From a virus, in IMG/VR virus record IMGVR_UViG_3300031234_000818: a stretch of 64,000 nt of DNA; one strand, written 5' to 3'. A program made the position numbers and the translations under genes. This document shows positions 11,184 through 12,350 of the stretch, one piece after another (the stretch's first letter is position 1; the number at the start of each line of letters is the position of its first letter). Under the pieces are notes generated by a model that saw only the letters and a list, made by a program, of their open reading frames with translations, searched no databases and was not told the origin of the DNA.

Positions 11184-12350
11184 ATGAAGACGCACGTGAA
11201 CGTCGGGACCATCGGCCACGTCGACCATGGCAAGACGACGCTGACGGCCGCCATCCTGGCGGTGCAGGCTCACGCGGGGCTCGCGAAGGTGAAGAGCTAC
11301 GCCGACATCGCCAAGGGCGGGACGGTCCGGGACGAGACCAAGACCGTCACGATCATCATCTCGCACGTCGAGTACGAGACGGCGAGCCGCCACTACGCGC
11401 ACATCGACTGCCCGGGGCACGCCGACTACATCAAGAACATGATCACGGGGGCCGCGCAGATGGACGGCGCGATCCTCCTGGTCGACGGCAGCCAGGGCCC
11501 GCAGCATCAGACCAAGGAGCACGTGCTGCTCGCCCGCCAGGTGGGCGTCGAGCGGATCGTGGTCTTCATCAACAAGGTCGACGTGGCGGATCCGGAGCTT
11601 CTGGAGCTGGTCGTCACGGAGGCCACCGAGTGCCTGGAGCTTCACGGCTACAAGGGCTCGCCGGTCGTCCAGGGCTCGGCGCGGAAGGCTCTGCTGGACC
11701 CCGGGAAGGAGGGGGCCTGCATCCAGGCGCTGCTGGAGGCGATGAACGCGCACTTCCCGGATCCCGTGCGGGACTACGAGGCGCCGTTCATGATGCCCAT
11801 CGAGGGCGTGCACACCATCCAGGGTCGCGGCACGGTGGTCACCGGGCGGATCGCGCGCGGTGTCCTTCAGGCCGGCGCGACGGTGGAGATCATCGGCCTG
11901 GTCGACGCGGAGGCCAAGCCGCGCCAGGTCGTCGTGACGAGCATCCAGATGTTTTTCAAGGACCAGCCGGAGGCTCGTGCCGGCGAGAACTGCGGGCTGC
12001 TGCTTCGCGGCGTGGCGCGCGAGGAAGTGGTCCGGGGCCAGGTGCTCATCGCGCCGGGCTCGGTGAAGTCGCACACGAAGGCGACGGCGGAGATCGTCCT
12101 CATCCCCCACAAGGAGGGCGGTCGTCACACGGCGATCCGCGCGGGGTACACGCCGCAGTTCTTCTTGGGGACGACGGACGTCACGGGGACTCTCGTGGCG
12201 CTGGGTGGCAAGGAGACTCTCAACCCTGGCGATCACGGAGAGGTCTCGCTGGAGCTTCTCAAGCCGGTGGGGATGGAGGCCGGGATGCGGTTCGCCGTCC
12301 GTGAGGGAAGCAAGACGGTCGGCGCCGGGGTGATCCTCAGCGTCGAGTAG
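11184..12350 (+). CDS. tuf: Elongation factor Tu, divergent paralog
   Basis: [42 protein letters not shown]-terminal FAVREG.KTVGAG; switch I is divergent. Confidence 0.95.

Follow-up and report, generated by a model that had tools for sequence, protein, structure and literature searches.

A phage-encoded elongation factor Tu embedded in a tRNA array and altered at its acceptor-end site

Described EF-Tu genes and tRNA arrays, and the locus compared with them

Elongation factor Tu (EF-Tu) is among the most conserved of proteins and is required in near-stoichiometric amounts with aminoacyl-tRNA (aa-tRNA). In Escherichia coli, it makes up 6 to 10% of the proteome (PMC13581612). Here, we analyzed a 64,000-nucleotide stretch of viral DNA (IMG/VR record IMGVR_UViG_3300031234_000818, hereafter the window) in which the gene for a divergent EF-Tu, P0001, lies within a large array of tRNA genes. 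Our preferred reading, to which sequence comparisons lead us to assign a probability of about 0.6, is that P0001 acts as the working EF-Tu of a portable decoding module made up of tRNAs plus EF-Tu and dependent on the EF-Ts and ribosomes of the host.

Housekeeping EF-Tu, as represented by E. coli TufA/TufB and the protein of T. thermophilus (PDB 1EXM, 1TTT, and 1OB2), shares with P0001 the three domains, motifs G1 to G5, His84, Thr61, the tRNA 5'-end and T-stem contacts, and the closed fold of the GTP form, at approximately 50 to 57% identity. It also has an 8-residue N-terminal arm (with F5 and R7) that is absent from P0001, which differs further by D216G, F218H, E259Q, R262F/H, R333G, the change of GPMPQT to GPQHQT, deletion of D142 and G164, and Y160H/Q (E. 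coli numbering unless stated). A second housekeeping form, found in Myxococcota, Planctomycetota, Elusimicrobiota, and Verrucomicrobiota, has a switch I loop identical to that of P0001, including its 2-residue insertion (hereafter the KGG type). This form nevertheless carries the full MAKEKFxR arm, the D/F pocket, E259, and R333, and outside the loop it is only 54 to 58% identical to P0001.

That huge phages encode EF-Tu is already published. Al-Shayeb et al. (2020) reported such genes on tRNA-rich genomes of >200 kb and put forward the hypothesis that they "maintain translation" (PMC7162821); the available text of that paper lists presence only and describes neither a phage EF-Tu lineage nor its placement in arrays, the loss of the arm, the pocket changes, or the type of switch I. 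In the tufB operon of E. coli (thrU-tyrU-glyT-thrT-tufB), EF-Tu lies directly downstream of same-strand tRNAs, as here, and its supply is coupled to theirs, but that operon holds 4 tRNAs rather than dozens and is a housekeeping, immobile, and undiverged locus. L-arrays, such as the trn operon of Anabaena, comprise 20 to 43 same-strand tRNAs, are spread patchily by horizontal gene transfer through phages and chromosomes, lie next to a gene for a homing or HNH endonuclease, and are induced when translation is under stress (PMC8421152). The array of the window has the hallmarks of this class, namely at least about 20 tRNAs on the same strand, a patchy distribution by horizontal transfer, and an adjacent homing-type endonuclease. 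In its available text, the L-array paper (PMC8421152) names EF-Tu only in the reference list and places none inside arrays, whereas EF-Tu is recurrent in the arrays described here.

Two further systems bear on the protein itself. In the engineered variants EF-Sep and EF-pY, D217G together with F219Y or F219G (UniProt numbering; D216 and F218 here) improves binding of acidic or bulky aminoacyl groups (PMC6386890). These variants were selected for phospho-amino acids and also change H67, E216, T229, and N274, whereas P0001 keeps the corresponding H66, E215, T228, and N273. Nematode mitochondrial EF-Tu1 and EF-Tu2 are duplicate factors specialized together with their tRNA set, as is likely here; in that case the tRNAs are truncated and EF-Tu has gained extensions, whereas the tRNAs of the window look canonical and the T-stem contacts are unchanged (PMC1636415). 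A literature search for phage or viral EF-Tu by those or similar phrases returned no paper, and neither the Aravind jumbo-phage survey nor a soil huge-phage paper mentions EF-Tu. The lineage of P0001 (clade A, below), the array embedding that phages and chromosomes share, the missing arm, the convergent pocket, and the loop swap thus appear to be undescribed in the searched literature.

The array-embedded gene, its relatives, and the acceptor-end site

P0001 matched the Pfam models that make up the EF-Tu domain set, i.e., the G domain GTP_EFTU (PF00009), domain 2 (PF03144), and domain 3 (PF03143), with E values of 8e-51, 1e-18, and 4e-26, all over the gathering scores. Solved EF-Tu chains in the PDB matched at approximately E 1e-130 with 50 to 56% identity, and two NCBIfam subfamily models were passed (NF000766, 501.6 versus 449; NF009372, 491.7 versus 479). 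An AF2 model (pLDDT 84, pTM 0.79; residues 45 to 58 of switch I and 78 to 81 below 50) superposed at a TM score of 0.92 on GTP-form EF-Tu and its ternary complex with Phe-tRNA (1EXM, 4H9G, and 1TTT). A preliminary description of the window had called the gene a phage-type EF-Tu inside a tRNA array, and this three-domain open reading frame (ORF) of 388 residues between tRNA-Arg(CCU) and tRNA-Met (Table 1) agrees with it. Its statement that motifs G1, G3, G4, and those of domain III are intact also held in the alignment, which adds G5. The N terminus, read as MKTHVNVG, indeed lacks the KEKFER segment; an in-frame TAA stands three codons before the ATG, behind an AAGG motif, and the arm is therefore not encodable in P0001.

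Linkage to tRNA genes was a general property of the phage-borne relatives. Clade A genes on phage contigs nearly always had tRNAs nearby, with 3 to 43 within 10 kb (window, 38; L003, 42 plus a transfer-messenger RNA [tmRNA]; L010, 39; L011, 42), and, besides the window, about 20 IMG/VR contigs of 80 to 620 kb had the EF-Tu gene inside a tRNA array. Similar islands were present in chromosomes. In a 9.4-Mb Myxococcota contig (L154), 37 tRNAs surround the EF-Tu gene, with an HNH endonuclease and a Ro60 (TROVE+vWA) gene, and the island is flanked by MOSC, MFS, and TPP enzyme genes; L125 holds 14 tRNAs in 4 kb around a clade A EF-Tu, and L001 holds 18 tRNAs with HNH, RtcB, and Ro60-vWA genes. The HNH protein of L154 was homologous to that of the window (35% identity, E 2e-28) and to those of L011, L003, L001, L010, and L125. 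Phage tRNA arrays are in this way linked with chromosomal L-arrays implicated in translational stress, and the Ro60 and RtcB neighbors connect them with genes for RNA repair and quality control. Ro60 (TROVE+vWA), RtcB, PcfJ, and HNH genes beside the EF-Tu/tRNA islands occupy L154:3343-4959, L154:8272-8961, and L001:12690-17788, and tmRNA genes lie in or beside phage arrays that carry EF-Tu at L003:18225-18577 and L015:30-467.

Residues of 131 members of the window's EF-Tu family were compared with those of 76 cellular EF-Tu proteins. Motifs G1 to G5, with the P-loop and NKxD/SAL, as well as His84 and Thr61, were present in P0001 and in at least 126 of the 131 members, except for the variable positions C137 and L175. 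Also kept in the family were the domain-2 motif GRGTVVTGR; the contacts to the tRNA 5' end (K89, N90, and R288) and to the T stem (R318, H319, T320, Q329, T338, and E378); the EF-Ts-side residues H118, Q114, and E152, along with E117, L145, and L148; and T382. Changes fell at positions where the sampled cellular sequences vary little or not at all, and the divergence at the aminoacyl/CCA site (D216, F218, E259, and R333) is absent from the preliminary description. D216 (76 of 76 cellular sequences) is Gly in 124 of 131 members and otherwise Ser, F218 (74 of 76) is His in all 131, E259 (76 of 76) is Gln in 117 of 131, and R333 (100%) is Gly in 98%. In addition, V104 (99%) is Leu throughout the family, M112 and P113 (100% and 95%) are Gln and His, Y160 (71 of 76) is Gln or His, D142 and G164 of the cellular sample are deleted, and the arm residues F5 (91%) and R7 (100%) are missing. 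When the conserved pocket residues H66, E215, D216, F218, T228, and N273 were examined together with E259, P0001 departed at three of them, by D216G, F218H, and E259Q.

E259 (E271 in T. thermophilus) is a residue that we take to be the stacking platform of A76. Because D216/F218, the arm, and R262 all lie at the aminoacyl/CCA end, the changes center on a single functional site. Within the ternary complex, the tRNA 3' end is bordered by the N terminus, switch I, and the domain-2 site, R263 (Met-counted numbering; R262 here) forms an ion pair with the phosphate of A76, and the CdiA-CT(NC101) tRNase docks at this same tRNA 3'-end site on domain 2 (PMC5737660). The concentration of changes at this site, together with the tight linkage of the gene to tRNA genes, would also fit a protein that binds phage tRNAs and protects their 3' ends against nucleases or enzymes that modify the CCA end, or that reserves them for phage mRNAs, while doing little decoding; immunity directed at tRNA 3' ends has been reported (PMC12851939). 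We consider such an aa-tRNA holder very unlikely, because His84, the sarcin-ricin-loop contacts H19 and D21, GRGTVVTGR of domain 2, and switch II are strictly conserved, which would not be expected if ribosome-triggered GTP hydrolysis were dispensable.

A phylogeny against bacterial tuf genes, which the preliminary description had named as a check, was computed by maximum likelihood with the switch I and N-terminal columns removed and, in a second tree, with the pocket columns removed as well. Both trees separated cellular EF-Tu from clade A with 100/100 support. Clade A comprised 35 to 36 rows and took in every arm-less EF-Tu from phage contigs other than those of clade B (below). It included extra copies from Myxococcota, 57 to 64% identical to P0001 and found beside one or two housekeeping copies, which accords with the earlier remark that similar divergent tuf paralogs exist in bacteria; one further copy came from an Albitalea isolate. 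R333G (35 of 36 rows), E259Q (33 of 36), and V104L ran through the clade.

Some of these data could be taken to indicate an ordinary bacterial tuf paralog, or a host gene captured passively with its tRNAs from a tufB-like operon, that has no phage function. In cells, tufB-type genes have flanking tRNAs, some chromosomes of Myxococcota carry clade A copies, and a few EF-Tu genes in IMG/VR are plain host-like sequences (L018 and L171 to L183). This explanation nonetheless seems highly improbable, given that a 100/100 branch divides clade A from every cellular EF-Tu sampled, that the family is large, under purifying selection, and present on complete phage genomes with direct terminal repeats (DTR), and that convergent changes affect the same nearly invariant residues in two lineages.

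The second of these lineages, clade B (L016/L158 to L170; contigs of 36 to 533 kb), was found by a profile scan of IMG/VR. It is nested in the housekeeping EF-Tu of Planctomycetota as sister to a Planctomycetaceae gene (99/97), and it keeps E259 and R333. Its genes lie nearly all among 6 to 22 tRNAs, the exception being a pair with an NY pocket (L173/L174, the same as L023/L024) that has no tRNA within reach. The arm, or at least R7, is lost (starts MK.., METK.., and MAKATFTCE), and residues 216 and 218 read GH at 11 loci, DH at 2, GY at 1, and NY at 2. A third small viral group includes L181, whose pocket reads DM and which has 11 tRNAs. In the second tree, every one of the 53 cellular rows was DF, and strongly supported branches force at least five changes of pocket state. 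Among 160 distinct EF-Tu sequences in an alignment-based table, 46 combined an altered pocket with absence of the arm, 29 of them with at least six tRNAs within 5 kb, and about 105 had the DF pocket and the arm, 2 of them with that many tRNAs; the arm classifier misfiles about 7 armed sequences. Since the rows are not phylogenetically independent, it is the two to three separate origins that carry weight.

Judged by these trees, loss of the arm and the G/H pocket were reached independently in clades A and B. Two array-embedded lineages that lose the arm and converge on a Gly/His pocket point to selection peculiar to viral or mobile decoding modules, and they provide natural counterparts of the pocket mutants engineered for genetic-code expansion. 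As a tentative generalization, viral EF-Tu lineages may travel with tRNA arrays as a semi-autonomous decoding module and may have repeatedly rebuilt the CCA-end site, which would give them an amino-acid and tRNA acceptance profile unlike that of the host factor or make them blind to effectors docking there. If true, phages would have evolved a partly orthogonal elongation system.

Table 1. Positions in the window of the EF-Tu gene, its motifs, and the surrounding array
Feature	Position	Strand	Basis or remark
EF-Tu gene (P0001), 388 aa, clade A array-type	11184..12350	+	ORF; Pfam, NCBIfam, and PDB matches; trees
End of 5' leader: AAGG Shine-Dalgarno-like motif and in-frame TAA (11175-11177)	11171..11183	+	Read from sequence
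G1/P-loop GHVDHGKT (G11-T18), intact	11214..11237	+	Alignment
Switch I, KGG type, 17 residues (D41-I57)	11304..11354	+	HMMER alignment
G3 DCPGH with catalytic His79 (H84 in E. coli)	11406..11420	+	Alignment
G4 NKVD	11571..11582	+	Alignment
Aminoacyl side-chain pocket E207-G208-V209-H210 (E. coli E215-D216-V217-F218): D216G, F218H	11802..11813	+	Alignment, trees; PMC6386890
A76/CCA platform: Q255 (E. coli E259), F258 (E. coli R262; mostly His in family)	11946..11957	+	Alignment; PMC5737660
G329 (E. coli R333), change common to clade A	12168..12170	+	Alignment, tree
38 tRNA genes on one strand, enclosing the EF-Tu gene	4644..14701	+	tRNA scan
tRNA-Arg(CCU), 115 nt upstream of EF-Tu start	10994..11068	+	tRNA scan
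tRNA-Met(CAU), 97 nt downstream of EF-Tu stop	12448..12517	+	tRNA scan
HNH endonuclease within tRNA array	9688..10233	+	Homologs beside or inside EF-Tu/tRNA arrays of other phages and Myxococcota chromosomes

Switch I loop types and the question of defense escape

In the preliminary description, switch I of P0001 was regarded as rewritten. The loop does differ from the canonical one: in the HMMER alignment, the 19-residue stretch of P0001 set against YDQIDKAP--EEKARGITI is 2 residues longer and carries R58K, G59T, and I60V, with the Mg-binding Thr56 (T61 in E. coli) kept. It is not specific to phages, however, but serves as a housekeeping form in several phyla. In an alignment of EF-Tu from 80 GTDB species genomes, the loop DIAKGG(T/I)VRDxxK(T/I)VTI was found in full-length, armed proteins (MAKEKFxRxKPH) of the four phyla named above and of some Patescibacteria and Dehalococcoidia (Chloroflexota). 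A KGG-type protein was the sole EF-Tu in one Myxococcaceae, one Isosphaeraceae, and one Verrucomicrobiota genome, and both copies of an Elusimicrobia chromosome were of this type. KGG-type cellular genes also occur in a context like that of E. coli tufB, thrU-tyrU-glyT-thrT-tuf-trpT (tRNA-Thr/Tyr/Gly/Thr-tuf-tRNA-Trp). The housekeeping tuf loci retrieved from 301 Myxococcota genomes were all KGG type except L153. A third loop type, 5 residues longer (..AKA[DS]...RRDxTKILT..), was present in several Acidobacteriota, Aminicenantes, Thermotogota, and Bipolaricaulota and in some Planctomycetota and Kiritimatiellota.

The KGG loop was invariant in more than 120 family clusters at 78 to 87% identity, and dN/dS between family members was 0.05 to 0.24, indicating purifying selection; the loop is therefore a selected feature rather than the product of chance or decay. 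The KGG-loop proteins of clade A make up a single branch (100/98) nested among canonical-loop members, with L028 and L011 as successive sisters (100/95 and 100/99), so that the loop type changed once inside clade A. Codons 36 to 57 of the window gene were up to 0.85 identical at the nucleotide level to Myxococcota tuf, equal to the value for phage relatives, and the rest of the gene was only 0.57 to 0.66 identical to Myxococcota tuf. The nesting and this local similarity suggest that the KGG loop was probably gained in clade A by exchange of a segment with a KGG-type tuf, from a donor that GC3 bias and the short length of the segment prevent us from naming; clade B phages are an alternative source.

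Exchange of this kind may be widespread. Loop type is patchy over cellular phyla, with strongly supported branches forcing at least five changes, which suggests that the switch I segment has been exchanged repeatedly among bacterial tuf genes. In the cellular tuf loci L032 to L111 and L131 to L153, the three switch I types were distributed patchily within groups such as Pirellulales, Chloroflexota, Patescibacteria, and Acidobacteriota. In a metagenome-assembled genome (MAG) of Polyangiales, one clade A EF-Tu gene (L112:2-1168, + strand) stands alone and encodes the canonical loop and the D/F pocket; it follows an ORF with an ATP-dependent DNA-ligase-like motif, and the housekeeping tuf of that genome is KGG type.

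The preliminary description had gone on to propose a backup EF-Tu that resists defense systems aimed at host EF-Tu, citing cleavage by E. coli Lit at Gly59-Ile60 in RGITI. The attractive Lit-escape reading of the loop was rejected: since the KGG loop is the housekeeping form in Myxococcota and Planctomycetota, it cannot distinguish a phage EF-Tu from that of such a host, and the Lit peptidase (PF10463) was present in 1 of the 301 Myxococcota genomes. A spare role as such is plausible. As a defense- or toxin-proof spare, with domain 2 and the N terminus as the escape surface, P0001 would work when host EF-Tu is cleaved, modified, or exploited, for instance by Lit, a type IV Thoeris protease, Doc-type kinases, ADP-ribosylating Rhs toxins, or EF-Tu-dependent CdiA tRNases. 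EF-Tu is a known target or cofactor of defense and toxin systems (PMC13581612, PMC5737660, PMC9825190), and the docking area of CdiA-CT(NC101), on domain 2 beside the N terminus and switch I, is convergently changed in clades A and B. Moreover, translational stress induces the L-type tRNA arrays of chromosomes (PMC8421152), and the chromosomal EF-Tu arrays adjoin Ro60 and RtcB RNA-repair genes. Set against these points are the loop shared with the housekeeping protein of the likely host phylum, the rarity of Lit there, and the unchanged Doc target T382 and P-loop; furthermore, an EF-Tu-targeting system was identified in no host of these phages, and any resistance of P0001 is hypothetical. Overall, we judge a defense- or toxin-proof spare unlikely.

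Proposed function and phage setting

Under the preferred reading of P0001 as the working EF-Tu of a portable module, the gene would most likely be transcribed together with the array tRNAs; a scan of the window sequence gave no promoter- or terminator-like match between it and the flanking tRNAs. P0001 would bind GTP and aa-tRNA in the usual way, deliver the latter to host ribosomes, and rely on the EF-Ts of the host for recycling. Two observations suggest such reliance: no EF-Ts match was found in the complete relatives, and the family keeps the residues on the EF-Ts side. The phage would thereby gain its own supply of ternary complex, in step with the additional tRNA load and separate from the host EF-Tu pool; since EF-Tu is needed near-stoichiometrically, a phage that adds about 40 tRNA genes stands to gain from adding the carrier. 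By analogy with the engineered variants, the rebuilt acceptor-end site (no arm, D216G, F218H, E259Q, and R262H/F) should make acidic or bulky side chains less disfavored and flatten amino-acid-specific affinity, and the same changes would alter the surface where toxins dock. One candidate reason for the rebuilt site is that a flatter preference could carry evenly those array tRNAs whose T stems are untuned to host EF-Tu; another is escape from effectors that dock at or use that surface.

The idea of the preliminary description that P0001 is tuned to non-canonical phage tRNAs was not upheld. The array tRNAs of the window scored 44 to 70 bits on the Rfam model RF00005, and the T-stem contacts are those of cellular EF-Tu. 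Odd tRNAs were seen in related arrays, including one with a 4-nt anticodon (taag) and others with 2-nt anticodons, as well as minus-strand tRNA-Tyr(ata) and tRNA-Ile(aat) (L011:16811-16888; L004:4256-4327; L028:19121-19652). In the window, a lone tRNA-like gene outside the array (22496-22573, + strand) was assigned a 2-nt "anticodon" by ARAGORN (tRNA-???) and scored 43.9 bits with Rfam, the minimum for the window.

The phage character of the lineage is supported by its relatives. EF-Tu genes at 72 to 85% identity occurred on IMG/VR contigs of 63 to 436 kb, including two complete DTR genomes of 377 and 436 kb, in which the window-type EF-Tu was the only match to the GTP_EFTU domain and no EF-Ts match was found. 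The window itself is a 64-kb piece with phage-like content, and complete relatives exceed 200 kb. The longer contigs among the family clusters were mostly 200 to 550 kb, and two were of bacterial size (3.7 Mb, and 899 kb from Labilithrix sp.). Phage records in INPHARED yielded only host-contaminant tuf (about 50% identity) and no true relative of P0001; the clade is therefore absent from the isolate phages of that collection. The host of the window phage is probably a Myxococcota bacterium, as suggested by same-subclade copies in a Labilithrix MAG, the clade A islands, matching G+C content (about 65% in the window), and the nucleotide similarity of the loop.

More than 20 peat metagenomes contained the window stretch. 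In two peat RNA libraries, contigs that matched exactly covered 11117-11237, 11869-12019, and 13172-13461, a weak hint that the EF-Tu region is transcribed; these are assembled contigs whose uncovered parts are uninformative, and depth at 11211-11612 derives mostly from cross-mapping tuf of other organisms.

Several points weigh against P0001 being the working EF-Tu of such a module. The case for its activity is built from sequence conservation, phylogeny, gene context, and purifying selection, and the RNA-library contigs can be DNA carry-over. P0001 scored 480.1 on the NCBIfam equivalog TIGR00485, below the cut-off of 522.4. With two of the six pocket residues and E259 changed, binding of aa-tRNA could be weakened rather than tuned, and the helix D region differs (D142 deleted, R154T), which leaves interaction with EF-Ts and L7/L12 not assured. 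In Myxococcota chromosomes, many clade A copies stand alone, without tRNAs, and the assignment of the host is itself indirect.

Among the other proteins of the window, one gave a strong PHROG match, and many ORFs belonged to no family. The small ORFs near the EF-Tu gene (10528-10863, 12727-13005, 13093-13953, 14223-14606, and 14706-15068) had no match in PHROGs or Pfam; that at 13093-13953 (+ strand) encodes 286 residues and lies just downstream of the EF-Tu gene and tRNA-Met. The window also encodes Nampt/NMNAT-like NAD salvage proteins, NUDIX proteins, and J-domain Ser/Thr kinases. A class II ribonucleotide reductase of 1496 residues (29494-33984, + strand) contains an intein with a LAGLIDADG domain and ends in a C-terminal TSCPD domain.

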